The translations under genes and the position numbers were made by a program. From assembly GCA_040752415.1 (NCBI GenBank), contig JBFMGU010000003.1, positions 1 through 64,000 of the forward strand: a stretch of 64,000 nucleotides of DNA, written 5' to 3'. This document shows positions 1 through 25,630 of the stretch, one piece after another (position 1 is the first letter of the stretch; each line of letters opens with the position of its first letter). A model generated the notes under the pieces. It was not told the origin of the DNA. It did no database searches and saw only the letters and a program-made list of their open reading frames with translations. This DNA comes from Myxococcota bacterium (GTDB lineage Bacteria; Myxococcota; JACRCW01).

Positions 1-676
1 CGGCAAGCAGCCGCCCACCCCGCCCGGCGGCGGGCCGCCCGCCCAGAAGCCCCAGCCCGGCATCCTGGCCGCGCTCACCAAGCTGCCCAAGAACAGCGGC
101 GCGGCGGGCAGCCAGACCATGCTGGCGGCGGTGAGCAACATCAACGCGGTCAAGGTCCCCGGCGGCGCGTCCAGCTTCAAGGTGAGCGCGCTCATTGGTC
201 GCGGCCCCACCACCGGCGTGCAGATTGGTGGCTCCGGCGGTGGCGTGGAGACCAAGGGCCTCAACAGCATCCTGCGTGAAGGCGGGGGCGAGGGGCCCGG
301 TGCGCTCGGCGGCAAGGGCAAGGGCCAGGTGCGTGCGGCTCCCGCCATGGCGCTGCACCGTCAGGCCACCGCGCAAGGTGAGCTCTCGCGCGAGGAGATC
401 AGCAAGGTCATCAACCAGAACATGGGTCAGATCCAGTTCTGCTACGAGAAGGAGCTGCTCAAGAACCCGGGCCTGCAGGGCAAGGTCGTCTTCGAGTGGA
501 CCATCAAGCAGGACGGCTCGGTGTCCGTGGTGCGTACCAAGGTGGGCGCGCTGCCCTCGCCCGCCGCCACCAACTGCATGATCGACAAGATCAAGGGCTG
601 GCAGTTCCCCAAGCCCCGCGGCAATGGCGTGGTGGTGGTGACCTATCCGTTCATCTTCAAGCAGGCTGGCTTCTGA
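1..676 (+). CDS. 5'-partial CDS running in from upstream of the window; AgmX/PglI-type (TonB-C-like) C-terminal domain protein, Gly-rich linker
   Basis: Frame 2 is open from position 2 (GKQPPTPPGGGPP...) to the stop at 676, so the gene is truncated by the window. The C-terminal block EISKVINQNMGQIQFCYEKELLKNPGLQGKVVFEWTIKQDGSV...VVVTYPFIFKQ matches the AgmX/PglI C-terminal domain as I remember it. Gly-rich low-complexity region upstream. Confidence 0.5.
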   Translation, partial: GKQPPTPPGGGPPAQKPQPGILAALTKLPKNSGAAGSQTMLAAVSNINAVKVPGGASSFKVSALIGRGPTTGVQIGGSGGGVETKGLNSILREGGGEGPGALGGKGKGQVRAAPAMALHRQATAQGELSREEISKVINQNMGQIQFCYEKELLKNPGLQGKVVFEWTIKQDGSVSVVRTKVGALPSPAATNCMIDKIKGWQFPKPRGNGVVVVTYPFIFKQAGF

Positions 677-738
677 ACTGAATGCGCGGCCTGCCGTCGC
701 CATGACGACGGTGCCGCGGATGCAAGGGTGCAACTGGC

Positions 739-1467
739 ATGAGCGCGGCGTTGCGGTCCAGGTTTGGCCGTTGGGGGATGCTGCCGGGGTGGCTGCTGTG
801 TGCGGCGGTGTTGTGGTGCGCGCCGTCCACCGCCAGCGCGGTGACTCCCTGGTCTCCCTATGACGACGAGGAGCAGACGCTGAAAGCGGAGGTGGTGCAG
901 CAGCGCCGCTTTGGCAAGCTGCACGAGTTCTCCCTCAGCGGCGGCGTCTATCCCCTGGATGCGCTCTACACCGGCGTGGTGGGCACGTTCCGGTACGTGC
1001 TGCATCTCTCCGACCTGTGGGCCTGGGAGATTGCCGGCGGCAGCTACTCGTTCAACATCACCAGCGGCGTGGAGAAGCGCATGCTGGACCGTTACGGGCT
1101 GCAGTTCACCGACACGGAACGCATCCTGGCGCTGGGCGAGAGCAACGTCATCCTCAAGCCCATCTACGGCAAGTTCGCCGTCTTCAACCGCTGGATCTGG
1201 TACGCGGAGCTCTACCTGCTCGCCGGCGTGGCGCTCTCGCGTTACTCGGCCAGCTGGCGCCCCGGCCCCGACTACGGCGCGGGCATCCGTTTCCACCTCT
1301 TCGACTGGCTCGCGCTGCACATGGATGCGCGGCATTACATCCTGTGGTCCGGCATTCCGCCGCCACCGCGTTCCCCGGCGGATTTCCTGCAAGGCCCCGC
1401 CACCCTCAGCAACGTCGTCTATTTCGGCTCCGGCGTGAGCTTCCTGGTCTGGGACAGGTCCCCATGA
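739..1467 (+). CDS. signal-peptide small outer-membrane beta-barrel-like protein (GltA/GltB/NfsA-B-like paralog 1)
   Basis: 242 aa. N-terminal signal peptide (LLCAAVLWCAPSTASA). Alternating aromatic/hydrophobic beta-strand pattern with a C-terminal aromatic (..VSFLVWDRSP). Its stop overlaps the next start (ATGA at 1464-1467). Paralogous to the next ORF (shared motifs such as NVILKPIYGKFAVFNR vs NLVLKPLYGKFSFFNR). Confidence 0.5.
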   Translation: MSAALRSRFGRWGMLPGWLLCAAVLWCAPSTASAVTPWSPYDDEEQTLKAEVVQQRRFGKLHEFSLSGGVYPLDALYTGVVGTFRYVLHLSDLWAWEIAGGSYSFNITSGVEKRMLDRYGLQFTDTERILALGESNVILKPIYGKFAVFNRWIWYAELYLLAGVALSRYSASWRPGPDYGAGIRFHLFDWLALHMDARHYILWSGIPPPPRSPADFLQGPATLSNVVYFGSGVSFLVWDRSP

Positions 1468-2279
1468 GCACGTGGCATCCCATGCGGCTCCTCGTCGTCG
1501 CCCTTCCTGCGTTGTTCCTGGCGCTCACGCCGGAAACCGCGCGCGCCGACCGTCAGGTCATCCAGAACCGCACCTACCGCATGCAGCATGAGTTCACGTT
1601 GGAAGGCGGCGTGCTGCCGTTGGACGTGCTGTACAAGGCCGGCACCGTCACCGGCCGCTACACGTTCCACTTCAACGACTTCCTGGCATGGGAGGCCTTG
1701 AGCCTGACCTATGCGCCCATGACGGACATCAGCATCTTGAACCTGGGCTTTGGCCCATTCCGGTTCAACCACTTCACGCAGCAGGGCAACGACCTCCAGG
1801 ACAACCACGGCTACGACACCTTTGACGTCGACCAGCTGCGCCTGTTCGCGGAGAGCAACCTTGTGCTCAAGCCGCTGTACGGGAAGTTCTCCTTCTTCAA
1901 CCGCGCCAACGCGCGCGTGGAACTTTTTGGCGTTCTGGGCGGGGCTGTGGCCAATTTCATTGCGTACCGCGCCTGGCCCTTCCAGCCGGAGGAGAACATC
2001 GGCACCGTGCCGCCGCTTCCCGCCACCGCCGCCGACATCTTCCCCAAGCCGGGCCAGACCCTGCTCATCCGCCCCGGCGTCAACTTCGGCGGAGGCACGC
2101 GGCTCTACGTCGGTGAGCACTTCAGCGTCCGCCTCGACGCGCGCAGCTACACCTTCCTGGAGGGCTACACCACGCCCAAGGCGCCCGTGCCGCGGGAGCT
2201 GCCGGAGATTCCCGTCGGCTTCACGCAGGTCCTCTACCTCGGCGTGGGAACCAGCCTGAGCTTTGGAGGTGGGCTGTGA
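1464..2279 (+). CDS. signal-peptide small outer-membrane beta-barrel-like protein (paralog 2)
   Basis: Start MSTWHPMRLLVVALPALFLALTPETARA lies inside the longer ORF 1017..2279 and is translationally coupled to the upstream gene. About 271 aa, with similarity to 739..1467 across the whole length. Stop overlaps the next gene's GTG start (GTGA at 2276-2279). Confidence 0.5.
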   Translation: MSTWHPMRLLVVALPALFLALTPETARADRQVIQNRTYRMQHEFTLEGGVLPLDVLYKAGTVTGRYTFHFNDFLAWEALSLTYAPMTDISILNLGFGPFRFNHFTQQGNDLQDNHGYDTFDVDQLRLFAESNLVLKPLYGKFSFFNRANARVELFGVLGGAVANFIAYRAWPFQPEENIGTVPPLPATAADIFPKPGQTLLIRPGVNFGGGTRLYVGEHFSVRLDARSYTFLEGYTTPKAPVPRELPEIPVGFTQVLYLGVGTSLSFGGGL

Positions 2280-3820
2280 AGGCGCGCGGTCTGGTGTTGC
2301 TGGCGCTCGTCGTGGCGCCGTGGTGGGTGGCCGCGCAGGCCGACAAGAATGGCAAGCCCCCGCCGCCTCCTCCCGCGCAGCCCGTGGCCCCAAGTCCCGA
2401 CGGGGGACCCGCTGCTTCCGTCGACGGCGGTGCTCCCGCGCCCAAGGCGGTGCCGGCCAGCGTGTTCGAGAGCGGTGTGAAGGCCTTCAATCGCGGCAAC
2501 TACGGTGAGGCCGCCGGCAAGTTCTTCCAGTACATCCAGGGCAACGAGCCCGCGGCCACGTTCTATGACTGGTCGGAGTACTACCTGGGGCGCAGCCTGC
2601 GCGCCGGCGGGCTCAACCACGCTGGCGACGAGTATCTCTACAACGTGGCCAAGGCGCGCAGCCGCCCGGAGCTGGTCCCCGACGCACTGCGTGGCATCGA
2701 GGAGGACATCCGCACCGGCGTCTACGACGAGGAGCTGCTCATCAAGGACCTGATTGCCGGCAGCGAGTTCGGCGACCAGCCCAACGACGTCACCGCGTTC
2801 ATCCAGTTCTACCAGGGCGTGGCCGACCTGCGGGACCGCAATGAGCTGTGGGCGCGCGGTCACTTCGAGCGCATCCCGCCCGGCACGCGTTACACCGCGC
2901 AGGCGCAGTACGTGATTGCCGTTCAGGAGCTGGCGCGCGGCAACCTGGAGAAGGCGCGGGAGCTCTTCACGGAGGCCGCCGAGGACCCGCGCGCCGACCT
3001 CAAGACGCGCAACAACGCGCACCGCGCCCTGGCGCGCATGGCGTTCGAGGAGAAGGACTACCTGGGCGCCATCAAGAAATATGGCGACGTGAAGGTCCCG
3101 TTCCTCTCCGAGGAGGAAGCCACCATCTTCCTGGAGATTGCCTGGGCGCGTTACCACCTCAAGGACTACCGCGGCGCACTCGCCATCCTGATTTCGCTGG
3201 ATGCGCCGAGTTATCGCCAGGCCTACTTCCCGGAGCGCTGGATTCTCGAGGCGCTCATCTACAAGAGCCTGTGTCACTACGCTGCGTCCAAGAGCAGCGC
3301 GCGGGAGTTCACCCGTCGGTACGGTGACGCGCTCAAGGCCGTGCGCGAGCAGCGCTCACCGCTGGCCCATCCCGTCATCCGCAACGCCGCGTTGCAGAGC
3401 CCGGTGGCGGGTCGAAGGCTGGCGCACCTCAAGCGTCTCAACGCCGAGCGCGACCGGCTCTCCGGCTTCTCCACCAGCGCCGACCTCTCCAAGCACCTCA
3501 AGCGCCTCTACGACCTCAAGGTCAAGGAAGGCGCGCGTCTCCTCGAGGAGGACCTGGAGAAGGAGGCCAAGCGCGTGGCGGAGGAGCTGTTGGACTTCGA
3601 GGAGCAGGCCCGGCTCGTCGACTACGAGGTGGGCCTGGAGGTGTTCCGACGGGTGCCGCAGGCCGCGCGTCGGGCCACGGTGGAGTCGCGCAGCTCGGCT
3701 CCGCCGCTGGGCGGTCACGACGTGCACTACGTCTTTGACGGTGAATACTGGAACGACGAGCTGCACGACTACCAGGTCTCCATCGAGGACCGGTGCTTTG
3801 CGGAAGGGTTGTTCAAATGA
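2276..3820 (+). CDS. secreted TPR/helical-repeat protein (GltC/NfsC-like position)
   Basis: 514 aa. GTG start with signal peptide MKARGLVLLALVVAPWWVAAQA. A Pro/Ala-rich linker is followed by helical repeats. Stop overlaps the next start (ATGA at 3817-3820). Confidence 0.45.
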   Translation: MKARGLVLLALVVAPWWVAAQADKNGKPPPPPPAQPVAPSPDGGPAASVDGGAPAPKAVPASVFESGVKAFNRGNYGEAAGKFFQYIQGNEPAATFYDWSEYYLGRSLRAGGLNHAGDEYLYNVAKARSRPELVPDALRGIEEDIRTGVYDEELLIKDLIAGSEFGDQPNDVTAFIQFYQGVADLRDRNELWARGHFERIPPGTRYTAQAQYVIAVQELARGNLEKARELFTEAAEDPRADLKTRNNAHRALARMAFEEKDYLGAIKKYGDVKVPFLSEEEATIFLEIAWARYHLKDYRGALAILISLDAPSYRQAYFPERWILEALIYKSLCHYAASKSSAREFTRRYGDALKAVREQRSPLAHPVIRNAALQSPVAGRRLAHLKRLNAERDRLSGFSTSADLSKHLKRLYDLKVKEGARLLEEDLEKEAKRVAEELLDFEEQARLVDYEVGLEVFRRVPQAARRATVESRSSAPPLGGHDVHYVFDGEYWNDELHDYQVSIEDRCFAEGLFK

Positions 3821-6800
3821 GCCGCGGTCTTGCTCTCCTCCTGGCGTTGTCCATTCCGCTGATGTCCGGCGCCGCGGATTGGCGCAACAAGCAGCAGCGC
3901 AAGGATGAGTTCCTCCTGCAGCTCAAGCGGGACATCAACAAGACCGACAAGTCCATTGCCATCACCAAGGACCTCATCGCCCGCAGCAAGGGCGAGAAAT
4001 ACCTCCCGGACCTCCACTTCCGCTTGGCCGAGCTCTACGTGGCCAAGAGCCGCCTCCTGTACTTCAAGGTGCTGGAAGAGGCCGGGCTCGAGGACAAGCG
4101 CAGCGTCACGGCGCCGGAAGCGCGGCTGCTGAAGGACCAGGCCATCCGCACGTACCGTCGCATCCTGCAGGAGTTCCCGGACTACCCGGACAACGACAAG
4201 ATCCGCTTCTTCGTCGGCCATGAGCTGCGTGAGCTCGGCGAGTTCGAGGCGATGATCCGCGAGTACCAGCTCCTCGTGGAGCAGTACCCGGACAGTGATT
4301 TCCGCTGGGAGGCCTACCTCGTCCTCGGCGACTACTACTTTGACAAGGCCGACCTCGATAACGCCGAGCTCTATTACAAGAAGATCGTCAACAGCCCGGA
4401 GACCTACGTCCACAACCTGGCGCGCTACAAACTCGCGTGGTGCCACCTCAACCGCGAGCGCTTCAAGGAAGCGCTGGAGCTGTTCGAGAAAGTCATCCTC
4501 ACCGAGCAGATCGACGTCAACAAGAGCCTCCAGATTGACGCGCACGGCCGCATGAACGTGAAGCGGGAGGCGCTGGTGGACAGCGCGTTCTGCTACACCG
4601 AGGTGAAGAAGCCGCAGGACGCGGTGCCGTACTATCGCAAGCTGGCGCAGAGCCGCTCCGACTACATCGCCGCGCTGGAGAAGCTGGCCCGTCGCTATTC
4701 CATCAAGGGCGACCCGGGCGCCGCCGCCACGCTGTACCGCGAGGCCATGGCGTACTCCAATGACGTCGAGCACAACATGGACCTGGCCCTCAAGATCTAC
4801 GAGATGGTCCAGCAGTCCAAGAAGCGCGACGAGACCGACAAGGACGTGGAGCTCATGGTGGCCGCCGCCGCGCGCTACCGCTTCTCCTGGCGCGGTACCG
4901 AGGAGCAGAAGAAGCAGGCGCTGGAGGACTTTGAGCTCCTCACCCGTGACCTCAGCACCAAGCTGCAGCTGGAAGCGCAACAGAAGGACGACGCCAAGCT
5001 GCACGCCAAGGCCGCGCGCGCCTACAAGGCCTATCTCTCGCTCTTCAAGGACAGCCCCAACGGCAAGGACATGACGTGGAATTACGCCGAGGCGCTGTTC
5101 GAGAGCGGGCAGTACGTCGAGGCGGGGCGCGTGTTCGAGAAGCTGGCGCAGGACGCGGAGAGCGCTTCCGGTCCCAAGCAGGCCGCCGCCGACAAGCCCG
5201 CCGACGCCAAGGCCGCCAAGCCCGACGAGAAGAAGCCCGCCAAGGCCGCGCCCGCTGTGCCGCCTCCGCCCAGGAAGGGGGCCGGCGCCAAGAAGGATGA
5301 CGTCGTCGAAATTGCCACCAAGGCGGGTGGGGGGGCGCCGGAGGATGGTGAGCGTCGCAAGGCCATGTACAGCGCCGTGATGGCGTACTTCCAGGCGCTG
5401 CGGAAGACGCAGAACCTCACCCGGCTGGAACAGACCCTGGCGCGCGAGGGCATCAAGAACCTGGGCGTGCGTTTCGTCGAGGAGTATCCGAAGGATGAGT
5501 TCGCCGCGCAGGTGAAGTTCAACGTGGCGCGCGCGTACTACGAGCAGGGTGAGCTCAAGAAGGCCAATGAGCTCTTTGTGGCCTATGCCGCCGAGCATCC
5601 CGGCAGCAAGGACGCCGTGGCCGCCGCCAACCTGGCGCTGGACGCGTTGCAGCAGCAGGAGAACTACGTGGAGCTGGCCAAGCAGGCGCGCGCGTTCGCC
5701 AAGGACACGCGGCTCGGCGACGACAAGTTCCGCTCCGACATGACCGCGTTGGCCTCGTCGGCGGACCAGCAGGAGATCGACCGCCGCACCATCGAGGCGC
5801 AGGGCAACCTCAAGGAAGCGCTCTCCGACATCATCAAGGAGAAGAAGGGCACCGACCTCGCCGCCAAGGCGCTCTACCAGGCGTTCGCGGTGGCCAAGGA
5901 CCGTCGGGACATCCAGTCCATGCAGAGCGTGGGCACGGAGATCATCACCGAGTATCCCGACTCCACCTACGCGCAAGGCGTCCTTCCCGCGCTGGGTGAG
6001 CTGGCCATCAACGGCGGCGAGTACGACCGAGGCGCCGGCTACTACGAGGAATTCACGCGCCGCTTCCCCAACGACAAGGCCTCCACCGACCTGCTCTCCG
6101 CCGCCACCGAGCTGCGCCTCGCGCTCGGCGACCGCGCCAACGCCATGACGAATCTCGAGAAGCTCATCAAGGCTTCCGAGGGACCCAAGCGCACCGAGTA
6201 CCAGATGCAGCTCATCCGCACGGCGCTGGAGGCCAAGGCGTGGCGTCGTGCCGCCGACGCGTCCGAGCCGCTGCACGACAACCCGCAGGTGGGCGCCGAG
6301 GCGCGCGTGCTGGGGGCGGAAGGGCTCATCAAGGCCGGTGAGGAGGCCGCGGCGGCGCGCGTGCTGCTGGGGGCCACGCAGATGGTGGCGCGCGGTGAGG
6401 GCGGGGAGAATGGCAAACAGGCAGCCTCACGCGCGTCCTTCATGCTGGGGGAGCTGCTGCGCAAGGAGTACGAGCAGATCAAGTTCGGTTCGGGTGCCGA
6501 CGACGCCACCGTGCTGGCCGCCAAGTTCCAGAAGCTGGAGGAGCTGGAGAAGATCTACGGCCAGGCGGTGCAGCTGGGAGATGCCGGCTCCGCCATTGCC
6601 GCGCTCTACCGCGTGGGCCAAGCCTACCGAGGCGCCGCCGACATGCTCGACGGTGCGCCCATGCCCGAGGGCCTTGCCGAGGCCGACCAGCAGGCCTACC
6701 GCGCCGCGCTGGCCGAGCGCAGTGGCCCGCTCCGCAGCACCGGCGACGAGTACCTGAAGACCTGCAAGGAGAAGAGCGGTCAGCTGCGCATCTTCTCCCC

Positions 6801-7269
6801 GTTCGCCCGCGCGTGCCTCACCGGCGCCCCCGTCCCCGACGAGCTGCCCGGTCCCGCGCCGCGCGCCGTCACCGAAATCCCCGGCGCCGCCGAGCTGCGC
6901 GTGAAGCTGCGCAACAACCCCAAGGACGTGGAAGCGCTGGTGGAGCTGGGCAAGCGCGCGCTGGCCGCCGGCGACTACTACGGCGCCCGCGTCATCTTCA
7001 GCCGCGCCGAGGAGCTCGCCGGCAACCGCGCCGACGTCCACAACGGCCTGGGCGTGGCCAACCATGGCACCGGCGACGTGCAGGCCGCGTACTTCTCCTT
7101 CAAGCGGGCGCTCGAGATCGACAGCGGGTTCGCGCTGGCGCATCACAACCTGGCCATCATGTTCTCCGAGGTGGGCGACACCACCAACGCCAACGCCGAG
7201 AAAGGCGCGGCCGGTGGCGCTCCGCCCGACTCCCCGGAGATCATCAAGCCGCAGGGCGGGGGGGCCTGA
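3817..7269 (+). CDS. large secreted TPR-repeat protein (~1150 aa; AgmU/GltD/NfsD-like)
   Basis: Start MSRGLALLLALSIPLMSGAA (signal peptide) is 8 codons inside the listed ORF 3793..7269 and overlaps the previous stop. It is TPR-like across its length, with a Lys/Ala/Pro-rich linker near the middle (KPAKAAPAVPPPPRKGAGAKK). Stop TGA overlaps the next ATG (7269). Confidence 0.55.
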   Translation: MSRGLALLLALSIPLMSGAADWRNKQQRKDEFLLQLKRDINKTDKSIAITKDLIARSKGEKYLPDLHFRLAELYVAKSRLLYFKVLEEAGLEDKRSVTAPEARLLKDQAIRTYRRILQEFPDYPDNDKIRFFVGHELRELGEFEAMIREYQLLVEQYPDSDFRWEAYLVLGDYYFDKADLDNAELYYKKIVNSPETYVHNLARYKLAWCHLNRERFKEALELFEKVILTEQIDVNKSLQIDAHGRMNVKREALVDSAFCYTEVKKPQDAVPYYRKLAQSRSDYIAALEKLARRYSIKGDPGAAATLYREAMAYSNDVEHNMDLALKIYEMVQQSKKRDETDKDVELMVAAAARYRFSWRGTEEQKKQALEDFELLTRDLSTKLQLEAQQKDDAKLHAKAARAYKAYLSLFKDSPNGKDMTWNYAEALFESGQYVEAGRVFEKLAQDAESASGPKQAAADKPADAKAAKPDEKKPAKAAPAVPPPPRKGAGAKKDDVVEIATKAGGGAPEDGERRKAMYSAVMAYFQALRKTQNLTRLEQTLAREGIKNLGVRFVEEYPKDEFAAQVKFNVARAYYEQGELKKANELFVAYAAEHPGSKDAVAAANLALDALQQQENYVELAKQARAFAKDTRLGDDKFRSDMTALASSADQQEIDRRTIEAQGNLKEALSDIIKEKKGTDLAAKALYQAFAVAKDRRDIQSMQSVGTEIITEYPDSTYAQGVLPALGELAINGGEYDRGAGYYEEFTRRFPNDKASTDLLSAATELRLALGDRANAMTNLEKLIKASEGPKRTEYQMQLIRTALEAKAWRRAADASEPLHDNPQVGAEARVLGAEGLIKAGEEAAAARVLLGATQMVARGEGGENGKQAASRASFMLGELLRKEYEQIKFGSGADDATVLAAKFQKLEELEKIYGQAVQLGDAGSAIAALYRVGQAYRGAADMLDGAPMPEGLAEADQQAYRAALAERSGPLRSTGDEYLKTCKEKSGQLRIFSPFARACLTGAPVPDELPGPAPRAVTEIPGAAELRVKLRNNPKDVEALVELGKRALAAGDYYGARVIFSRAEELAGNRADVHNGLGVANHGTGDVQAAYFSFKRALEIDSGFALAHHNLAIMFSEVGDTTNANAEKGAAGGAPPDSPEIIKPQGGGA

Positions 7270-7901
7270 TGAAGACCACGCGTGACCTGCTCATCCCGGT
7301 GCTGATTGCCGCTGCCGCGTTCGCCGGTTGCGGATTGCGCCACCGCGTTGACCGCGACCTGCTGGAACCCATCCCCAACGAGGACAAGCTCCTCCTGTTC
7401 GAGGCGGAGAACGACGTCCTGATCGCCAAGGATGAGATTGCCGCCGCGGAGACCGACCTGGAAGACGCCAAGAAGGCGCTGGACAACGCGGAGGACCAGG
7501 CGGACACGCTGCGTGGGCAGGCGGGTCGCGAGAAGAACGCGCAGCTGGCGGCGCTGTTGCGTCAGTGGGCGGACAAGAAGATCGACTGGCGGGAGGCGGA
7601 GGTGGACCTGGCCAAGGCCCGCAAGGCCGCCGCGTCCGACGCGCTCACCGCCGCCCGCGCCCGCTACGAGAGGGCCAAGGCCCAGATCGTCAAGGAGCAC
7701 GCACCGCGCAGCGCCACCGGCATCTCGCTCAAGGACTTCGAGGGGCAGGTGAAGGACAAGGAGCAGGACGCCGAGAGCGGTCGCAAGGACGTGGAGAAGG
7801 CCAGGAAGCTGCGCGACGAGAAGCGCGCGGCCTATGATGCCGTCAGTCGCAAGCTGCAGCAGGTCAGCGACGGCGCGTACGGAGGGCCGTGGGCGGACTG
7901 A
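7269..7901 (+). CDS. coiled-coil lipoprotein
   Basis: MKTTRDLLIPVLIAAAAFAGC.. is a lipobox (AFAGC), followed by charged heptad-like sequence (EDAKKALDNAEDQADTLRGQ...). The listed ORF 6813..7901 is an in-frame upstream over-extension running antisense-like through the previous gene. The ATG at 7269 is coupled to the upstream stop. Confidence 0.5.
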   Translation: MKTTRDLLIPVLIAAAAFAGCGLRHRVDRDLLEPIPNEDKLLLFEAENDVLIAKDEIAAAETDLEDAKKALDNAEDQADTLRGQAGREKNAQLAALLRQWADKKIDWREAEVDLAKARKAAASDALTAARARYERAKAQIVKEHAPRSATGISLKDFEGQVKDKEQDAESGRKDVEKARKLRDEKRAAYDAVSRKLQQVSDGAYGGPWAD

Positions 7902-7922
7902 CCCCGGCAGAAGAGGCCAACC

Positions 7923-9944
7923 ATGCAACGCCCCCTTCACTCCTGCACCCTGCGCCACCTCCGTCGGCCCGGTAGCGCCCTGGCGCTCTGGTGCGCGCTC
8001 TCCGTGGCTCCCGCCTCCACGCTGGCACAGGAAGAGACCGCGCCCGCACCCGACGCGCCCCCCGCCACCGTGGAGTCGCTGGAGGCCGCCCGCAGCTCCC
8101 AGCCCGACGACGCGGAGAGCCGCTACCTTCTGGCCATGGCCTACGCCAAGGCGGGCAAGGTCGACGAGGCCATCAAGGAGCTGGAAGCCGCCATTGCCAC
8201 CGAGCCGGAGAACCCGGATTTCCACCAGGCCCTGGCCCTCATCCTCGAGAAGAAGGGCGACCAGCCGCGCGCGCTCGAGGAGTACAAGAAGGCCTTTGAC
8301 CTGGCCACCACGCCGGAGACGCAGTTTGACCTGGCGCGCGGTCTCATCCTGGCCGGCAAGGCCGACGAGGCGTGCAAGCACCTGGAGCGCCTGCTGCAGA
8401 AGGACCCCAGCTTCACCGCCGCACGCTTCAACCTGGCGCAGGCCTATGAGGCGGCGGGCCGCTACGAGGACGCGGTTGCCAGCTACACCAAGGTGAGCCA
8501 GGAGCTGCCCGGCGACTCCCGCGCGTTCATTGCCATGGGCAAGATGTACGCGGAGCGCGGCATCTACGACCAGGCGCTGGAGAGCTTCAACAAGGCGCTG
8601 GCCGTCAATCCCAAGGACGCCGACGCCAAGTACAACGTGGGGGTGGTCTATTTCCGCATGAAGCGCTTCGCGGAGAGCGCGCGTGCGTATGAAGAGGCCA
8701 TTGCGCTCAACCCCAAGCGCATCGAGGCGCACAACAACCTCGGCGTGGCCTACCAGAAGCTGGGTCAGAAGGAGAAAGCGGTGGCCCAGTTCCGAAAGGT
8801 GGTGGAGCTGGACCCCGGCTTTGCCGACGCGCATTTCAACCTGGGCCTGGCCGCCTTCCACGCCGCGCAGTTCGACGAGGCGGAGCGCGAGTTCAAGAAG
8901 ACCCTGGAGCTGAAGCCCAACAGCCCGGAGGCCAAGTTCCACCTCGGGGAGGTGTATTTCCAGAAGGGCCAGACCGGCAAAGCGCTGGACGAATACAAGG
9001 CCGCCCTCCAGCTCAGCCCCGACGACGCCGCCACGCACCGTCGACTGGCCGACGCGTACCTCAAGCAGGGCGAGCTGGACCTGGCCATTGGTGAGTACCG
9101 CGCCGCGGTGCAGGGCGACGCCAAGGACACGCAGTCCCGTCACCAGCTGGCGCGCCTGCTGCTGCTGCGCAACCGCGCCGAGGAGGCCGTGGAGGTTGCC
9201 AAGGCCGCCATTGCTGCCAACGAGAAGGACATGGAGGCGCATCACCTCGCCGCCGAGGGCTACAAGGCGCAGTCCTTCAGCGTGCTGGCGGAGAAGCAGT
9301 ACCTGGCCGCGCTGGCCGCCAACCCCGACCACGCGCTCACCCACGCGCGCTACGGCACCGTGCTGCTGGACAAGGGTGACGACGTCAGCGCCGTGCGCGA
9401 AGCCGACGCTGCCCTCAAGCTCGACCGCAAGTGCGCGCTCGCCTACTGGATTCTCGGCGAGGTCAATCTCAAGCGGCAGAACGACACCAAGAAGGCCATC
9501 GACTCGTACAAGAAGGCGGTGGACGCGGACCCCAAGTTCGTCGACGCGCGCGTGGACCTGGCCTTTGCGCAGCTGAAGGATGGCGACACCAGGAAGGCCA
9601 TCGAGAACTTCGAGCGCGCCATCCGTGACGACGGGAAGAACGCTCGCGCGCGCTACTACCTGGGCTTCGCGCTGTACAAGCAGGGCGACAAGAAGCGCGC
9701 GCTCAAGGCCTTTGAAGCCGCCGCGGAGCTGGATCCCTCGCTGGCGGAGGCGCATTACCAGGCCGGGCGCATCCTGCTGGGGGAGGGACAGAAGCAGGAG
9801 GCCGCCAACGCGTTCTTCAAGGCCGCCAGCGCCAAGCAGGGCTACGGCGACGCGCTCCTGGAACTGGACAAGCTCGCCAAGGACGGTATCAAGCCTGCGG
9901 AGACGTCAGCGGCACCGTCGCCCGGGGGCGAGGCACCGCGCTGA
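7923..9944 (+). CDS. secreted tetratricopeptide-repeat protein (AglT/GltE-like)
   Basis: 673 aa. Signal peptide (ALALWCALSVAPASTLAQE), then more than 12 canonical TPR units (e.g. AYAKAGKVDEAIKELEAAIATEPENPDFHQALALILEKKGDQPRALEEYKKAF). Confidence 0.6.
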   Translation: MQRPLHSCTLRHLRRPGSALALWCALSVAPASTLAQEETAPAPDAPPATVESLEAARSSQPDDAESRYLLAMAYAKAGKVDEAIKELEAAIATEPENPDFHQALALILEKKGDQPRALEEYKKAFDLATTPETQFDLARGLILAGKADEACKHLERLLQKDPSFTAARFNLAQAYEAAGRYEDAVASYTKVSQELPGDSRAFIAMGKMYAERGIYDQALESFNKALAVNPKDADAKYNVGVVYFRMKRFAESARAYEEAIALNPKRIEAHNNLGVAYQKLGQKEKAVAQFRKVVELDPGFADAHFNLGLAAFHAAQFDEAEREFKKTLELKPNSPEAKFHLGEVYFQKGQTGKALDEYKAALQLSPDDAATHRRLADAYLKQGELDLAIGEYRAAVQGDAKDTQSRHQLARLLLLRNRAEEAVEVAKAAIAANEKDMEAHHLAAEGYKAQSFSVLAEKQYLAALAANPDHALTHARYGTVLLDKGDDVSAVREADAALKLDRKCALAYWILGEVNLKRQNDTKKAIDSYKKAVDADPKFVDARVDLAFAQLKDGDTRKAIENFERAIRDDGKNARARYYLGFALYKQGDKKRALKAFEAAAELDPSLAEAHYQAGRILLGEGQKQEAANAFFKAASAKQGYGDALLELDKLAKDGIKPAETSAAPSPGGEAPR

Positions 9945-9962
9945 CCGTGTGGAGCTGGGGTC

Positions 9963-10511
9963 ATGGGGCGCCTGCTGTTGTGTGCAGCGCTGCTGGTGTC
10001 CGTGGGTGGTTGCTCGCTGCTGCCGTGGAATCGCGCGGCGGAGGAACGACGTCGTCAGGCCCGCAATGATGCGCTGGTCCGCAAGATGGACCACGTGGTG
10101 CGCTCCTACCTGGGCACGCGCTACCGCCTGGGCGGCAACAGTCACAAGGGCATTGATTGCTCCGGCCTGCTGGTGCGCATCTATGAGGCCGTGGGCATCC
10201 GGCTGCCGCGCACCGCCTCCGCGCAGTACGACGTGGGTCGCGGGGCGGACTCCGACGAGCTCCAGTACGGCGACATCCTCTTCTTCAACACCAAGCCGCT
10301 GGGAAGACGGACGTCGTGCCTGTTCCCCGGGCCCATGGCCCGCGCGGATGTGCCGCTCATCTATGGGTTGACCCACAGCGGGATGTACGTGGGGCGCGGC
10401 CGGTTCGTGCACGCTTCGTCCAGCAGCGGCGTGAGCTATGCCCACCTGGATGACGAGTACTGGCAGGACCGGTTCATCGGCGCTCGTCGGATCCTGGATG
10501 ATTTTGACTGA
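9963..10511 (+). CDS. NlpC/P60 (C40) peptidoglycan endopeptidase lipoprotein
   Basis: Lipobox LVSVGGCS. Catalytic Cys context GIDCSGLLVRIY and His context LTHSGMYVGRGRFVHAS are typical of NlpC/P60. Confidence 0.75.
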   Translation: MGRLLLCAALLVSVGGCSLLPWNRAAEERRRQARNDALVRKMDHVVRSYLGTRYRLGGNSHKGIDCSGLLVRIYEAVGIRLPRTASAQYDVGRGADSDELQYGDILFFNTKPLGRRTSCLFPGPMARADVPLIYGLTHSGMYVGRGRFVHASSSSGVSYAHLDDEYWQDRFIGARRILDDFD

Positions 10512-10619
10512 TCGGACTTGCGCGTGGGCTGGGCCCTTGCCAAATGGCCGCGGCTGATTTTTCTTGTTTCCCCACACCGGGCCTTGGTAGCCCGGGGGCC
10601 TTCCGAGTGGGACCACGGT

Positions 10620-10960
10620 TCATGATTCGTCTGGCGCGTTGGGTTCGACTGCTGTGCGTGGGGGCCATGTTGTGCGCCCCGGGCGCGGCGTTGGCCCGTG
10701 CGCAGACGGACCTGGCCGAGCAGTCATCGCCGGGACAGCGCCTGCTCGAGGAAGAAGTCCACCAGCACGTGGAGCGTCGGCCGGTGGCCCTGCGACACCG
10801 CGGGGTGGTGCCCACGCCCCGGGTTGGCGTCCACCACAAGCGCATCGTTGACCAGCAACCGGTGCATCCCCTGCTGGAACGGGGAGTGGCCGCGCGCCAG
10901 CGCTCCGTCCAGCTGCCGCGGCGCACCGCGCCCCCTCCAGACGTAGAGAAACGCGCCTGA
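10620..10960 (+). CDS. hypothetical small secreted protein (weak call)
   Basis: Internal start MIRLARWVRLLCVGAMLCAPGAALARAQ looks like a signal peptide. No recognisable domain. It overlaps a long antisense artefact ORF. Confidence 0.2.
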
Positions 10961-11144
10961 CGGCGTGAAGGCCGGCTGATTCCCTGACGAGCCCCGGGTT
11001 CGGGCTGCGCATTGTTGCGTGGTCCGCCCGGCCCGTCACCGGCCCACCCATCCACACGCAGAACTGCAACCTCTGTCGTCGTCGGTGATGCCGCCGCACG
11101 CGCTGCGTGTGCCCGGTGTCTCCGAAAGCGCGGGCTGAACCACC

Positions 11145-12755
11145 ATGTCCAACACCTCCTCCGACGTCACCGAGCTGGTCCCGGCGCCCGTCGCGCATGA
11201 CCCCCCTCTCGACGTCACCGAGCCGCCCCGCGTGGTTCCGGTGCTCCTCCTTGCCGTGGTGTCCACCGGACTGCTGGGCGCCTCCAGCCTGGCGCTGGCG
11301 CCGCTGAGCGCGCTGCTGGCCACCCCGTTCCTGGGCGGGCTCCTCGTGCTGCTGGCGCCGGTCTCGCACCGCGGGGTGCTGCGCGCGCTCACACTGGTCA
11401 CGTCGGTGGTGACGCTGGTGCGGGCCTGGTCGCTGCTGGGGCCCTTTGACGGGTCGGTGGCCAGCCTGCAGCTGGTGGAAAGGCACCCGTGGGCCCCGGA
11501 AATGGGGATGTCCTACGTGCTGGGTGTCGACGGGCTCTCGTTCCCGCTGGTGCTCCTGACCACGCTGGTCAGCACGGTGGCCACGGTGGCCTCCGCCAAC
11601 CTCGGCGACCGGCCGCGCGGATTCTGGGGCTGCCTGCTGCTGCTGGAGGCGGCCATGCTCGGCGTGTTCACCGCGCAGGACTGGTTCCTCTTCTACAGCT
11701 TCTGGGAGATCACGCTCATCCCGCTGTTCCTGCTCGTCGGAGTGTGGGGCGGGGCGGGTCGTCACCATGCGGCCATGAGCTTCTTCCTCTACACGCTGGC
11801 CGGCTCCATCTTCATGCTGCTCGCCATGCTCGCGGCGCACGACGCCACGCCGGGCCACACCTTTGACATGGCGGAGATGGCGCACGCCGCGCGCAGCTGG
11901 CCGCTCAACTTCCAGGAGATGGTGCTGCTGGGTTTCCTCCTCGGCTTCGCGGTGAAGATCCCGGTCTTCCCGCTGCACGGGTGGCTGCCGCTGGCGCACG
12001 TGGAAGCTCCGGTGCCGGTCAGCATGCTGCTCTCCGCGGTGCTCCTGAAGATGGGCTCCTACGGGCTGCTGCGCGTTGGCGTCATGGTCCCCGCGGCGCT
12101 GGACGCGTTCGCGCCGGTGCTGATGGGCCTGGCGCTGGTCAACATCATCTACGGCGCGCTCATGAGCTGGCGCCAGAACGATCTCAAGAGCGCGGTGGCG
12201 TACTCGTCGGTGAGCCACATGGGCTTCGTGGTGCTGGGCATCTCCGCCGCCAACCTCACCGGGCTCGTCGGCGCGACGATGCAGATGCTCACCCACGGCA
12301 TCATCACCGCCGGGCTCTTCATGATGGTGGGCGCGCTGTATCACCGCACGCACACGCGACAGCTCACCGAGTACGGCGGCCTGGGTCCGCGGGTGCCCGT
12401 GCTGGCCGCGTTCACGACGGTGGCGGTGCTGGGCTCCATGGGCCTGCCCGGCCTGGCCGGTTTCGTCAGTGAGCTGCACACGCTCGTCGGCGGGTTCGAG
12501 CGCTGGGGCATGGTGGCGGTGCTGGCGTGCGTGGGCGTGATCATCACCGGCGCCACGTGCATCCGCATCCTGGCCCGCGCCTTCATGGGTCCGGCCAACC
12601 CACGCCTCCCGCACCTGGGCGACGCGAACGTCTGGGAGTGGGTGGGCATGGCGCCGTTGGTGCTGCTCGTCGTGGGACTGGGGCTGCAGCCGGCGCTGGC
12701 CCTGGACCTCATGTCCGCCACGCTGGGCCGCATGGCCGCGGCGCTCAACCGATGA
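11145..12755 (+). CDS. complex-I antiporter-like subunit, NuoM/ND4 family (Proton_antipo_M)
   Basis: 536 aa polytopic membrane protein. ND4/NuoM hallmarks are present: LGVDGLSFPLVLLTTLV, FLFYSFWEITLIPLFLLVGVWGG, FFLYTLAGSIFMLLAML, AYSSVSHMGFVVLGI. Confidence 0.75.
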   Translation: MSNTSSDVTELVPAPVAHDPPLDVTEPPRVVPVLLLAVVSTGLLGASSLALAPLSALLATPFLGGLLVLLAPVSHRGVLRALTLVTSVVTLVRAWSLLGPFDGSVASLQLVERHPWAPEMGMSYVLGVDGLSFPLVLLTTLVSTVATVASANLGDRPRGFWGCLLLLEAAMLGVFTAQDWFLFYSFWEITLIPLFLLVGVWGGAGRHHAAMSFFLYTLAGSIFMLLAMLAAHDATPGHTFDMAEMAHAARSWPLNFQEMVLLGFLLGFAVKIPVFPLHGWLPLAHVEAPVPVSMLLSAVLLKMGSYGLLRVGVMVPAALDAFAPVLMGLALVNIIYGALMSWRQNDLKSAVAYSSVSHMGFVVLGISAANLTGLVGATMQMLTHGIITAGLFMMVGALYHRTHTRQLTEYGGLGPRVPVLAAFTTVAVLGSMGLPGLAGFVSELHTLVGGFERWGMVAVLACVGVIITGATCIRILARAFMGPANPRLPHLGDANVWEWVGMAPLVLLVVGLGLQPALALDLMSATLGRMAAALNR

Positions 12756-12765
12756 CGGAGTCACC

Positions 12766-15700
12766 ATGAGCACGCACAACCACGCGCACGAAACTCCCCG
12801 GGACCCCCGCGAGCGCCTCCGTCACGAGGTGGAGCACGCCAGTCATCTGCTCGCGGCGCAGGGGCCCATCCGCACCTTTGTGCACCACAATACGCTGCAT
12901 GGCCTGCAACACCTGCACTTCGACGACGCCATCCGGGAAGCGGAGCGCGTGCTGGGAGGGCAGGGTTATCTGCCGGTGGAGACGTTCCGGCGCCTGCACG
13001 TCGAGGGACGTATCCCGCGGGACCAGCTGCTGCGCGCGCTGGAGGAGCTGTCCGGCCTGCCCCTGACCGAGAAGCCAGCGGCCAACGTCACCGTGCGCGA
13101 CGTGGTGATGGCCCACCTGCTCCACGGCGTGGACCGGGCGTCTCCGTCGGAGTTGGCGTGGGAGATCGAGGGGCGGGGTGCGTTGGGCCGCTTGCGCGGG
13201 GACCTGCCGGCGGACGTGCGCGCGCAGTTGCTGCGGAAGGCCCACGACGAGCTGGAGCGTGGAGTTGCGCGCATTGGCGTGGAGTGGACCATCTCGGACT
13301 GGCTGGGCTCCATCACCGGTCTCGACGTGGCCGGGCATGTCACACGGGTTGCCGCGAGCGGAGGAGACGCCGGTGGCGCGGAACGCGCGTTGCGCGAGCT
13401 GGGGATTCCCGTCGAAAAGCGGGCGGGATACGTCGAGCTTGCGCAGCGTCGATGTCCTTCCGGACCGGACGCGTGGCTGCACCTGGAGGCGTTGACCGTG
13501 TCCGCGCTGGCGGAACGGCATTGGAGCGTGGAGGGAAATCTTCCGTCGCTGCAGCGCCACTTCCGAGAGCACGTGGAGGCCTATGCCGCCGAGACGCTTT
13601 GGCGCGCCTGCCTGGGCATCTGGGCCCTCGAGGACCCCACGTCTCCGACGGACGCCGCGTTGTCCCCGCGCGACCCGCACGGAGGCGTGGCCGAGCAGGC
13701 GTGGATCCATGCGGAGGAGATGGAGGCGGCCGGCGGTCCCGCGGTCACGTTGACGTCGTCACAGGTGGCCACCGTCCAGGCGCTGCTGACGCGAGCGGAC
13801 GAGGGTGACCACGCACGCCTGTGCTGGACCATCCAGCGCGAGTTGCGGGCAGCGGAGCTGGGGCGCGCAGGCTTGGAAGCGCTGCGCACGTTGCTCTCGC
13901 TCCACGCCGATGAAGTGGCTGCCAGGTTGCAGGAAGAGCTGCGCACGCAGGACCCGCACGCGCGCATGCTCGCCCACGCCCACGACGTCGCGACGAGCCT
14001 CATGGACGGACTGGCACACGGTTCCACCCACCGTGACGTTCTCCTGGCGGTCACCGGCGTCGACGTCAACGAGCGCGTGCATCCACGCATGTTGGAGCTG
14101 TGCTCCGCGTTCCTCGACGGAGGGATGGCCACCTGGCGCATGCCCGGTCGGACGCTCGGCCTCTACGACGCGTGGCGGAACCATGCTTCGCATGTGCTCG
14201 ATCTCGGAAATCCCGACGACCAGGAGCTGAAGTCGGCGCTCGCGGAGCTTCCCGTGCTGCCCGTGGACGCGGTGTTGCAGTCGCTGCGCGCGCTTGGTGT
14301 CGAGGAGGAGGCGTGGGGAGGGTACCTGGGACGCATCCTGCTGCAGCTGCCGGGATGGGGCGGGATGATCAGCTGGATGGAGCGCTCCGGACGACGGGAA
14401 CGCTCCGTGGACCTGGTGCAATTCCTCGCGGTGCGACTGTTCCTCGAACGGATGGAGATTGCGCGGCTGGCGCGTCGGACGTGGCACGTGGAGGGGACCA
14501 CCGAGGGCCTGCGCCAGTATTTCCTGACCCACCCCGAGGAGATCGTGGTCCGGCGGGAGCTGTTCTCCGGTTCCCTCCCCGAGCACCTGGCGGAAACCGC
14601 GCGACACCTCTGCCACGACGAGAATCCCCGACACCGCGCCGGTTGGACCTCGCTCGCGAATCTCCTGTGGCACCACCACGAGATCACCGGCGGCATCTCC
14701 GCGCATGACCACGCCTGGCGTCTCTTCCACCTCTCGCAGCTGCTGGGCCTGGGCGCCGAGGAGGTCCGTGCGCTGACCCGCGACGACGCCACGGCGCTGC
14801 TGAGGGTGCTGGACGGGTTTCCCGTCGAGAAGCACCGGCGCATCTGGCAGGCCGCGTATGAAAGCACCTACCGCGACCAGGTCCTGGACGCGCTCTGGCA
14901 GAACCGCGGGCGTGGACGTTGGAAGGACCGCCCGACGAGACCGCGCGCGCAGATTGCTTTCTGCATCGATGACCGGGAGGAGTCGTTCCGTCGTCACGTG
15001 GAGGAGATTGACCCGGAGTACGAGACGCTGGGCGTGGCCGGGTTCTTTGGCGTGGCCGTGCACTACCAGGGTCTCGACGACGAGGCGGCCAGCGCGCGCT
15101 GTCCCCTGGGTGTGAACCCGCAGCACCACGTGCGCGAGGTGGCGCAGGAGGATGCGGGGCGACAGATGGCGCGTCATCGCTCGGAGTCACGCTGGCAGCA
15201 GGCGGTTTCCGACGTGTTGTGGGAGCTGCGTCGCAGCCTGGTGGGCAGCTACTTCCTGGTGGACCTGGTGGGGGCGGTCTCGGCGGTGCCCTTGCTTGGG
15301 CGCGTGGCGTTCCCCGGCGCGTTTGACGACGTGGCGAACCGCGTCCGTAGCCCCATGAACACCGCCGTTCCCACCCGCCTCACCGTGGACGCGCGGGAGG
15401 TGGACGGACGCCGCAGCGGGTTCACCACCGCCGAGCAGGCCGACCGCGTGGAAGCCACGTTGCGCAACATGGGATTGACGTCGGGATTCGGGGCGGTGGT
15501 GCTGCTGTTTGGTCACGGATCCATCAGCGTCAACAATCCACACCTTTCCGCGTACGACTGCGGCGCGTGCGGCGGCAACCACGGTGGCCCCAACGCACGA
15601 CTCTTCGCCGCCATGGCCAATGCGCCGGAGGTGCGCGCGGTGCTGGCCACACGCGGCATCGTGATTCCCGACGACACCTGGTTCGTGGGCGCGGAGCACA

Positions 15701-16524
15701 ACACCTGCAATGAGCTGCTCACGTACTACGACACCGACGTCATTCCCGCGTCCAACAAGCAGGCCTTCGCGGAGCTGGTGAAGGACATGGAGGAGGCGCG
15801 TCGACGTTCCGCGCACGAGCGGGCTCGGCGTTTCCGGTCCGCGCCGCGCAATCCCACGCCGGAGCGCGCGTTGCGGCACGTGCAGGAGCGCGCGGTGGAC
15901 CTCAGCCAGGCGCGACCGGAGCTGGGACACGCCACCAACGCCTGCGCCGTCGTGGGGCGGCGGTCCCTGACGCGCGGGGTGTTCCTGGATCGCCGCGCGT
16001 TCCTCATCTCCTACGACGCCACGCAGGACCCCACGGGGAGCATCCTGGAGCGCATCCTGATGGCGGTGGGGCCGGTGGGGGCGGGCATCAACCTGGAATA
16101 CTACTTCTCCACCGTCGACAACCTGCGCTTCGGCTGCGGCTCCAAGGTGGTGCACAACGTCAACGGGCTGCTCGGCGTGATGGACGGTCCGCGCAGCGAC
16201 CTGCGTACCGGGCTCCCCAAGCAGATGGTCGAGATCCACGAGCCCATGCGGCTGCAGATGATCGTCGAGGCCAGCACGGAAACCCTCGGCGCCATCTACG
16301 GACGACAGAAGCCGTTGCAGGAGCTCATTGGCAACGCGTGGGTGCACCTGGTGGCCGTGGACCCGCACAGCGGGGAGGCCTCGGTGTTCACGCCTGGCCG
16401 GGGATTCGTGCCCTGGACGCCGCCGGGGAGCGCGCTCCCAACGGTCAAGGCCTCGTCGGACTGGTACCGCGAAAAAGCGGATTTCATTCCTCCCGCGCTG
16501 ATCCAGGGGGACCGCCATGCTTGA
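12766..16524 (+). CDS. DUF2309/DabA-like protein (putative beta-CA-like CO2-hydrating subunit of a DAB-type complex), unusually long (1252 aa)
   Basis: N-terminal AAQGPIRTFVHHNTLHGLQH matches the conserved DabA/UPF0753 N-terminus. Internal FCIDDREESFRRH (CxDxR) and GHGSISVNNPHLSAYDCGACGGNHGGPNAR (His/Cys) resemble the Zn-ligand motifs reported for DabA. It starts 11 nt after the upstream ND4-like gene, and its 3' end overlaps the next gene by 8 nt. Confidence 0.8.
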   Translation: MSTHNHAHETPRDPRERLRHEVEHASHLLAAQGPIRTFVHHNTLHGLQHLHFDDAIREAERVLGGQGYLPVETFRRLHVEGRIPRDQLLRALEELSGLPLTEKPAANVTVRDVVMAHLLHGVDRASPSELAWEIEGRGALGRLRGDLPADVRAQLLRKAHDELERGVARIGVEWTISDWLGSITGLDVAGHVTRVAASGGDAGGAERALRELGIPVEKRAGYVELAQRRCPSGPDAWLHLEALTVSALAERHWSVEGNLPSLQRHFREHVEAYAAETLWRACLGIWALEDPTSPTDAALSPRDPHGGVAEQAWIHAEEMEAAGGPAVTLTSSQVATVQALLTRADEGDHARLCWTIQRELRAAELGRAGLEALRTLLSLHADEVAARLQEELRTQDPHARMLAHAHDVATSLMDGLAHGSTHRDVLLAVTGVDVNERVHPRMLELCSAFLDGGMATWRMPGRTLGLYDAWRNHASHVLDLGNPDDQELKSALAELPVLPVDAVLQSLRALGVEEEAWGGYLGRILLQLPGWGGMISWMERSGRRERSVDLVQFLAVRLFLERMEIARLARRTWHVEGTTEGLRQYFLTHPEEIVVRRELFSGSLPEHLAETARHLCHDENPRHRAGWTSLANLLWHHHEITGGISAHDHAWRLFHLSQLLGLGAEEVRALTRDDATALLRVLDGFPVEKHRRIWQAAYESTYRDQVLDALWQNRGRGRWKDRPTRPRAQIAFCIDDREESFRRHVEEIDPEYETLGVAGFFGVAVHYQGLDDEAASARCPLGVNPQHHVREVAQEDAGRQMARHRSESRWQQAVSDVLWELRRSLVGSYFLVDLVGAVSAVPLLGRVAFPGAFDDVANRVRSPMNTAVPTRLTVDAREVDGRRSGFTTAEQADRVEATLRNMGLTSGFGAVVLLFGHGSISVNNPHLSAYDCGACGGNHGGPNARLFAAMANAPEVRAVLATRGIVIPDDTWFVGAEHNTCNELLTYYDTDVIPASNKQAFAELVKDMEEARRRSAHERARRFRSAPRNPTPERALRHVQERAVDLSQARPELGHATNACAVVGRRSLTRGVFLDRRAFLISYDATQDPTGSILERILMAVGPVGAGINLEYYFSTVDNLRFGCGSKVVHNVNGLLGVMDGPRSDLRTGLPKQMVEIHEPMRLQMIVEASTETLGAIYGRQKPLQELIGNAWVHLVAVDPHSGEASVFTPGRGFVPWTPPGSALPTVKASSDWYREKADFIPPALIQGDRHA

Positions 16525-21586: not shown

Positions 21587-21602
21587 ACCGTCAGAGGTCC
21601 CC

Positions 21603-23234: not shown

Positions 23235-23237
23235 GTC

Positions 23238-23620: not shown

Positions 23621-23674
23621 CGACAACCCATGACCCACATTGCGACCGCAGATCGCGACCTCTAACGTCAGGGC

Positions 23675-24226: not shown

Positions 24227-24287
24227 GTTGCACGGCTGGTTTCCCCGGGGCGGTCCTGCTAGGAGGGGGCCCGGAACCGAGCAGCCC

Positions 24288-24653: not shown

Positions 24654-24709
24654 CCTCCCACGTTGTTATCTTCCTCCCACCCGCATTCCGGTTTGCACGG
24701 AGACACTCC

Positions 24710-25594: not shown

Positions 25595-25630
25595 GGCGCA
25601 GGCCGCAGCGGGAAGGAAGATGAGGCGGTC

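Follow-up and report, generated by a model that had tools for sequence, protein, structure and literature searches.

A probable counterpart of the Myxococcus xanthus G5 gene set in an operon of an uncultured Myxococcota lineage

Glt-type gene sets and the operon in the window

Agl-Glt and Agl-Nfs are the best-studied machines in which a proton-driven motor moves an envelope-spanning complex along the cell surface. Besides the glt genes (sets G1 and G2, with the motor M1), M. xanthus carries the sets G3, which corresponds to nfs, G4 (MXAN_1919-1923) and G5 (MXAN_1327-1331) (Luciano et al. 2011, PLoS Genet, PMC3169522), and a second motor, M2, is encoded by MXAN_3003-3005 (PMC3169522). Insertions in the gltD homologues of G4 and G5 left motility unaffected, the MXAN_1327 insertion mutant gliding as the wild type, and the function of both sets was stated as unknown in 2011 (PMC3169522). 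According to Table S3 of that paper (PMC3169522), G5 encodes, in coding-strand order from MXAN_1331 to MXAN_1327 (F-G-B-C-D), an F-like protein of 162 amino acids (aa) (MXAN_1331), a G-like protein of 749 aa with an FHA domain (MXAN_1330), a B-like protein of 246 aa (MXAN_1329), a C-like protein of 538 aa (MXAN_1328) and a D-like protein of 1089 aa (MXAN_1327). The present analysis concerns a run of eight genes, here called g1 to g8, at the beginning of a 64,000-nucleotide (nt) stretch of Myxococcota DNA (contig JBFMGU010000003.1, positions 1 to 64,000, forward strand). This whole stretch is referred to as the window.

Window positions 2-10511 probably represent the larger, 3' part of an operon which is the counterpart of M. 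xanthus G5 (MXAN_1331 to MXAN_1327) together with the two genes following it, in an uncultured Myxococcota lineage, and whose products would form an envelope complex of the kind outlined in the mechanism below. The reference locus was that of M. xanthus AM003 (L045), where open reading frames (ORFs) of 1089, 538 and 246 aa have the published lengths of MXAN_1327, MXAN_1328 and MXAN_1329. The window proteins matched this locus collinearly, with identities of 47% for g1, 32% for g2, 34% for g4, 34% for g5 and 30% for g7 (over 656 aa). The G-like gene, the barrel gene (in two copies), the C-like gene and the D-like gene stand in the G5 order, (F)-G-barrel-C-D; the F-like gene was seen in relatives only, because the window begins inside the G-like gene. 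In M. xanthus this series is also followed by a lipoprotein ORF and a TPR ORF of 689 aa, and no motor gene is adjacent there either. The M. xanthus locus differs in having one barrel gene where the window has two in tandem, while the appended NlpC/P60 gene and an insert in g5 are found in the window. Identities of 30-47% are those of a distant lineage, and the two downstream genes are not part of G5 as the paper defined it.

The scores of the D-like protein agreed with this assignment. Product g5 matched the G5 D-like proteins of Corallococcus and Myxococcus with 527-559 bits over about 1110 aa, whereas in a paralogue control it matched the G4 D-like proteins encoded beside mglBA with 107 bits and 29% identity over about 435 (434) aa. 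The G4 control cluster was reached through its neighbour mglA, with an MglA sequence as the query. Like those of the window, the M. xanthus G5 proteins score below the thresholds of the Glt models (GltG, 217 bits against 650; GltC, 96 against 450; CglF/GltF, 33 against 90). Because of the collinear matches, the G4 control and this shared sub-threshold pattern, the window cluster was classified as G5-type and not as an orthologue of glt or nfs.

A first-pass annotation of the window had proposed that the products are homologous to Glt and Nfs components and that the set is distinct from both glt and nfs. The former is borne out by the matches to GltG (E = 4e-37), OMP_myx_plus and GltC (E = 7e-23) and by the 34% identity of g5 to a listed GltD homologue, and the latter by the G5 synteny and by scores far below the GltG, GltC and GltE equivalog cut-offs. 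The gene order, which the annotation thought unlike the published M. xanthus glt and nfs loci, turned out to be the same as in the published G5 (PMC3169522 Table S3). The paralogous set was already described in 2011, and the window adds a distant member of G5, not a new kind of system.

Similarly to the window cluster, G4 of M. xanthus (MXAN_1919-1923, beside mglBA) encodes a D-like TPR protein and a protein with an AgmX/PglI tail, but its gene order is different and it has no barrel genes. In the G4 clusters of the loci L084-L086 (18995-20350), the AgmX/PglI tail was located on the last gene, whose 448 aa match the length of MXAN_1919, and the 803-aa gene encodes a TPR protein. In Table S3, however, GltC-like is the entry for MXAN_1919 and GltG-like that for MXAN_1923 (PMC3169522). 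Some of the G4 assignments in that table therefore look shifted.

The first 10.5 kb of the window has about 68% G+C and displays a run of plus-strand ORFs with a strong third-position GC bias. In the ORF screen, third-position GC was 0.84-0.92 for g1, g2, g4, g5 and g7, while g3 and g6 were absent from its output. Seven genes are tightly packed on the plus strand at positions 2-9944, and the eighth, g8, starts 18 nt past g7. Successive genes overlap by ATGA at 1464 (g2/g3), by GTGA at 2276 (g3/g4, with a GTG start) and by ATGA at 3817 (g4/g5). The seven-gene run and these three overlaps had been reported correctly before; a fourth overlap of the same type at 7269 had not, since the g5/g6 junction there is a single-base overlap (TGATG). 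Identical overlaps are present in the gene calls of the nearest relative (L001), so they are considered a conserved operon feature and not the result of chance. No promoter-like or terminator-like signal above chance was detected within window positions 1-11500. A gap of about 600 nt separates g8 from the next plus-strand gene, and g8 belongs to the same unit as g1 to g7. Every product except that of g1 carries a signal peptide at its N-terminus, and g6 and g8 bear lipoboxes.

Gene products of the operon

The operon products were searched with the NCBIfam models and with Pfam. Pfam recognized TPR in g5 and g7 and NlpC/P60 in g8, and returned nothing for g1 to g4 and g6.

Gene g1 (2..676, plus strand) is open at the 5' edge of the window and begins upstream of it. 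The 224 codons present, with a third-position GC of 0.92, are the 3' part of a GltG/PglI-like gene and encode a proline-rich linker followed by an AgmX/PglI (TonB-C-like) C-terminal domain. The match to the GltG model NF033760 (E = 3.9e-37, 128 bits, cut-off 650) involves the C-terminal 190 residues and model positions 468-649 of 650, the window encoding only the C-terminal part of the protein. Residues 128-220 passed the cut-off of the AgmX/PglI C-terminal domain model NF033768 (111.8 bits against 40), which confirms the earlier description of g1 as a TonB-C-like AgmX/PglI domain protein. A match to the GltJ model was confined to the shared C-terminal tail, and a sequence search of the PDB retrieved TonB only, at an insignificant E of about 0.8. 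In the nearest relative the g1 homologue has a full length of 756 aa, with 81% identity to the portion encoded in the window. It shows an N-terminal FHA-type match (NCBIfam), proline-rich regions, a single hydrophobic segment at 455-473, a second proline-rich spacer and then the C-terminal domain. We take the hydrophobic segment, as predicted from the sequence, to be a transmembrane helix. This full-length G-like protein reached 163 bits with the GltG model (cut-off 650), and the Pfam FHA family was also matched by more distant g1 homologues.

The two following genes, g2 (739..1467, plus strand) and g3 (1464..2279, plus strand), encode proteins of 242 and 271 aa with signal peptides. The former is an outer-membrane eight-stranded beta-barrel of the GltA/GltB type, and the latter is its paralogue with longer loops (28% identity, E = 1e-31). 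With TIGR04565 (OMP_myx_plus, cut-off 60 bits), g2 passed at 81.3 bits and g3 remained below at 51.3 bits. With 24 homologues as input, AlphaFold2 gave a model of g2 with eight strands (predicted local distance difference test score, pLDDT, 79), and its top Foldseek matches in the PDB were the OmpA transmembrane domain, NspA, OmpW, OmpX and the N-terminal domain of OprF (E = 3e-5 to 8e-4). GltA has been reported to have an OmpA-like fold, and the g2 model agrees with it. Both proteins are thus assigned as OmpA-like eight-stranded barrels, a fold predicted by modelling for g2 and by paralogy for g3. The annotation of g2 and g3 as two paralogous, barrel-like proteins with signal peptides was upheld by this paralogy and by the g2 model. 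A second barrel gene in the position of g3 is present in many related loci.

The product of g4 (2276..3820, plus strand) is a GltC-like periplasmic protein of 514 aa that has a signal peptide and is rich in proline in its N-terminal region. It matched the GltC model NF033756 at E = 6.8e-23 (81 bits, cut-off 450) and the 538-aa M. xanthus ORF corresponding to MXAN_1328 with 34% identity over 532 aa (283 bits). It had been called a TPR protein, but Pfam gave no TPR match at the reporting threshold of E<=0.01, and apart from the GltC model only weak matches of the YbgF/BamD type were obtained. A sequence search of the PDB with g4 gave no matches.

The 1150-aa product of g5 (3817..7269, plus strand) is a periplasmic TPR scaffold of the GltD-like kind and carries a signal peptide. 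It matched TPR families in Pfam, the NCBIfam model tol_pal_ybgF with 74 bits (cut-off 90) and the 1089-aa M. xanthus ORF corresponding to MXAN_1327 with 34% identity over 1117 aa (546 bits). Residues 450-525 approximately (window 5165-5390) form an Ala/Lys/Pro-rich low-complexity insert, which some lineages have and others lack. Full-text literature searches for MXAN_1325-1331 found no functional study. One transcriptome paper places MXAN_1327 under 'Tad-like pilus' and reports a cluster of MXAN_1327 and MXAN_3105-3107 as upregulated in predatory co-culture. The Tad assignment was not accepted, the protein being a TPR scaffold of the GltD type.

Gene g6 (7269..7901, plus strand) encodes a 210-aa lipoprotein (lipobox FAGC) that is a conserved member of the cluster. 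No family match was found in Pfam or NCBIfam. A single-sequence AlphaFold2 model (pLDDT 75) consists of three long helices (37-87, 91-144 and 154-203), and Foldseek returned generic three-helix and BAR-like bundles only (E > 6e-3), from which no inference was drawn. A g6 homologue occurs at the equivalent position in most related loci, and the one in M. xanthus is a lipoprotein ORF of 211 aa (E = 9e-6). Gene g7 (7923..9944, plus strand), also a conserved member, encodes a periplasmic TPR protein of 673 aa, which has a signal peptide and matches TPR_2, TPR_11 and related Pfam families (E down to 1e-82). Its collinear homologue was found in nearly all related loci. The first-pass annotation had taken g7 for GltE/AglT, but the GltE model gave 150 bits against a cut-off of 225 and was outscored by generic TPR models (MamA, PrsT, PilW, Tgl), and this identification was dropped. 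Hence, of the parallels drawn earlier with individual Glt and Nfs components, those of the barrels, of the GltC-like g4 and of the GltD-like g5 stand, while that of g7 with GltE is not supported and the 210-aa lipoprotein has no Glt counterpart. The ideas that g6 and g7 are a 'split GltE' or are CpoB-like were likewise discarded, as there was no evidence for either.

The last gene, g8 (9963..10511, plus strand), encodes an NlpC/P60 lipoprotein of 182 aa with the lipobox VGGC, which is of the type of the MepS-like peptidoglycan endopeptidases and matches PF00877 (E = 2.7e-26) and NF008096 (E = 5e-28). A g8 homologue at the same position was found in only one of the 80 related loci (L011). The NlpC/P60 gene at this position is lineage-specific, being shared by the window and its nearest relative only.

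Conservation of the cluster and its surroundings

A profile of g5 homologues, scanned against one genome per species, detected 237 relatives; the 80 loci that were kept all come from different species. They include Myxococcus, Corallococcus, Pyxidicoccus, Archangium and many uncultured Myxococcota. Wherever the contig was long enough, the order F-G-barrel(1-2)-C-D-lipoprotein-TPR was kept almost without exception, the number of barrel genes varying between one and two per locus. The original definition of G5 leaves out the lipoprotein and the long TPR protein, although both regularly belong to the cluster. The nearest relative is 64-81% identical to the window. Its operon starts with a 142-aa GltF/CglF-like gene (E = 1e-6) and is preceded by pgk, tpiA and a gene for an AMP-binding enzyme, without motor genes.

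When L042 was compared with L045 and L070 (about 6040-16220), the Myxococcus G5 cluster with its lipoprotein and TPR genes showed 92-93% DNA identity, against 82-87% in the flanks. This excess over the flanks suggests strong purifying selection on the G5 cluster in Myxococcus. L042 comes from an assembly labelled 'Comamonas sp. KCTC 72670' (BNCN01000002.1) with 71.6% G+C; given its 92-93% DNA identity to Myxococcus loci over G5, it is evidently a mislabelled Myxococcus.

Motor genes or, for L018, a motor-like match were found beside three distant loci from metagenome-assembled genomes (L014, L018 and L022), whose order is R-Q-S-(F)-G-B-B-C-D-lipoprotein-TPR. In L014 (2114-3818) and L022 (2518-4254), a MotA/TolQ/ExbB gene and a pair of ExbD/TolR genes stand just ahead of the G-like gene, separated from it in L014 by an F-like gene, and motor and transducer genes together make up a complete operon. 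Both loci are about 35% identical to the window cluster, and the composition of their motor genes is that of AglRQS. In L018 only a TolQ-like tblastn match (about 700-945) was obtained at the equivalent upstream position. A comparable grouping is known from Bdellovibrio, where the expanded core clusters Bd1474-1481 and Bd2369-2377 combine genes of the C, B, G, F and D types with one TolQ-like gene and a pair of TolR-like ones. In its details the gene order of Bdellovibrio is not that of the window, and the window cluster has no linked motor genes.

Downstream of the operon, a block of about 15 kb (window 11139-25594) separates it from purA (25595-26923). Its genes encode four Proton_antipo_M proteins, one of them DabB-like, a DabA of unusual length (1252 aa, the profile having 747 positions), a SulP transporter and an encapsulin (Linocin_M18) that is extended by about 130 aa at its N-terminus; a further ORF of 186 aa has no family. 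The block is absent at this position in L005 and L009-L012, where purA lies within 10 kb of the cluster and directly after the TPR gene, or after the NlpC/P60 gene in L011. Further downstream, two radical-SAM proteins (28162-29382 and 34656-36425) and a 680-aa FG-GAP repeat protein (29522-31564) are encoded near PP2C phosphatase and UvrC genes. Of the remaining ORFs covered by the scan, which extended to about 47 kb, most belong to purine and pyrimidine biosynthesis. All in all, the Pfam-scanned ORFs at 10.7-47.2 kb have transport or housekeeping functions.

Proposed mechanism and alternative readings

In the known systems, GltG and NfsG are binding partners of AglR, and movement of the Glt and Nfs complexes is driven by the proton-powered motor (PMC3858216). 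The steps proposed here follow by analogy with Agl-Glt and Agl-Nfs, the observations behind them being topology signals, folds, homologies, conserved gene order and the linkage of motor genes to the cluster in L014 and L022, with a TolQ-like match only in L018. The GltG-like protein in the inner membrane would dock to a proton-driven motor of the TolQ/TolR type, composed of one MotA/TolQ/ExbB and two ExbD/TolR subunits, which would be encoded elsewhere in the genome. The proline-rich spacer and the TonB-C-like domain of g1 would pass force to a periplasmic scaffold of g4, g5 and g7, and this scaffold would extend to the lipoprotein g6 and to g2 and g3, the barrels in the outer membrane. Assembly of the complex may be helped by g8, the NlpC/P60 lipoprotein, through local opening of the peptidoglycan. 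The cellular role is probably neither gliding nor spore-coat assembly.

Several points weigh against a motor-driven G5-type complex. Pfam scans of 20 window ORFs at 10.7-47.2 kb found neither MotA_ExbB nor ExbD domains, and the 64-kb window was also negative in a tblastn search with E. coli TolQ and TolR sequences as queries. No motor gene occurs upstream of the operon in the nearest relative either; the first-pass annotation had proposed looking for AglRQS/TolQR-like motor genes upstream of the window. Coupling to a motor would here follow from analogy and from linkage in the three distant loci only, with L018 contributing no more than its TolQ-like match. Moreover, the apparently closer relation to G5 than to Glt or Nfs is judged from synteny, equivalog cut-offs and the published tree, with G4 as the sole paralogue control.

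The idea that the operon is the actual adventurous gliding machinery of the organism, a true Agl-Glt orthologue assembled in one operon, draws on the presence of the D, F, G, C, A and B types, only the motor and GltE being missing from the glider set of Luciano et al. (PMC3169522), and on Anaeromyxobacter, where the G1 and G2 homologues are also grouped together. As in Agl-Glt (G1 gltD-J, G2 gltK-B-A-C and AglRQS), there are a GltG-like protein with FHA and TonB-C domains, GltA/B-type barrels, GltC-like and GltD-like proteins and, in relatives, a small GltF-like protein, and a Tol/Exb-type motor would be expected. We regard it as quite improbable. The window proteins lie below every Glt equivalog cut-off (GltG 128 against 650 for the C-terminal part, GltC 81 against 450, GltE 150 against 225), with no specific GltE, and no GltH, GltI, GltJ or GltK homologue was found in the operon or among the Pfam-scanned ORFs of the window. 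The genes form one operon with another order, collinear with G5, which coexists with glt in M. xanthus and whose disruption leaves gliding normal. An Nfs-type spore-coat assembly complex has even less in its favour, although the window resembles nfsA-H (MXAN_3371-3378) in being a single operon with two barrel genes followed by C-like and D-like genes, and the Agl-Nfs motor is encoded elsewhere as well. The nfs order is A-B-C-D-E-F-G-H, with F and G downstream of D and E, whereas here, as in G5, they precede the barrels. No NfsE-like or NfsH-like gene is present, a helical lipoprotein and a 673-aa TPR protein being encoded instead, and in published trees the closest paralogue of glt is nfs, with G5 apart from it and both present in M. 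xanthus. That the operon merely groups generic TPR and outer-membrane protein genes without a specific relation to Glt or Nfs has a negligible probability. Pfam alone, with TPR for g5 and g7 and nothing for g1 to g4 and g6, would leave room for it, but the specific NCBIfam matches (GltG, the AgmX/PglI tail, OMP_myx_plus and GltC), the collinearity and homology with a cluster published as glt paralogues (L045), and the conservation in related loci already refute it.

A Tol-Pal-like housekeeping system, acting in envelope integrity or in tethering and constriction of the outer membrane and not as a surface transporter, is the least improbable of the alternatives, although still unlikely. The architecture of g1 is TolA/TonB-like. 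As in TonB-ExbBD and Tol-Pal, an inner-membrane anchor with a proline-rich spacer and a TonB-C-like domain is combined with TPR partners of the YbgF/CpoB type, and the best non-Glt matches of g4 and g5 are YbgF/CpoB and BamD-type TPR models. The very wide conservation in Myxococcota, the higher DNA identity of the Myxococcus cluster (92-93%) than of its flanks (82-87%) and a peptidoglycan endopeptidase gene, g8, that appears to be co-transcribed here are also in line with a housekeeping role. On the other hand, Pfam and NCBIfam detected neither a peptidoglycan-binding Pal/OmpA-C domain nor a TolB-like beta-propeller in the eight operon products. A TonB-dependent receptor, Pal and TolB are missing, the sequence resemblance to TonB-C is weak (E of about 0.8 for TonB in the PDB), and a bona fide Tol-Pal system is located elsewhere in M. 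xanthus. This alternative differs from the G5-type complex proposed above in its biological role alone and not in its mechanism, and the two overlap.

Taken together, these data favour a distant G5 counterpart. A broader proposal, which is offered tentatively and which we consider possible without holding it to be the likelier outcome, is that the G5-type cluster (F-G-barrel(s)-C-D with the helical lipoprotein and the long TPR protein) constitutes a third class of motor-driven envelope machine, ancestral to Myxococcota, with its own TolQ-TolR-TolR motor, which would still be linked to the cluster in L014 and L022 and for which the unassigned motor M2 (MXAN_3003-3005) could be the candidate in M. 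xanthus, and with a cargo that is neither slime nor spore coat. The additions to the published G5 are modest: an extended gene set, a variable number of barrels, a lineage-specific NlpC/P60 gene and motor-linked versions. The conservation of the cluster, its two extra genes and the motor-linked versions provide handles for working out the role of G5.

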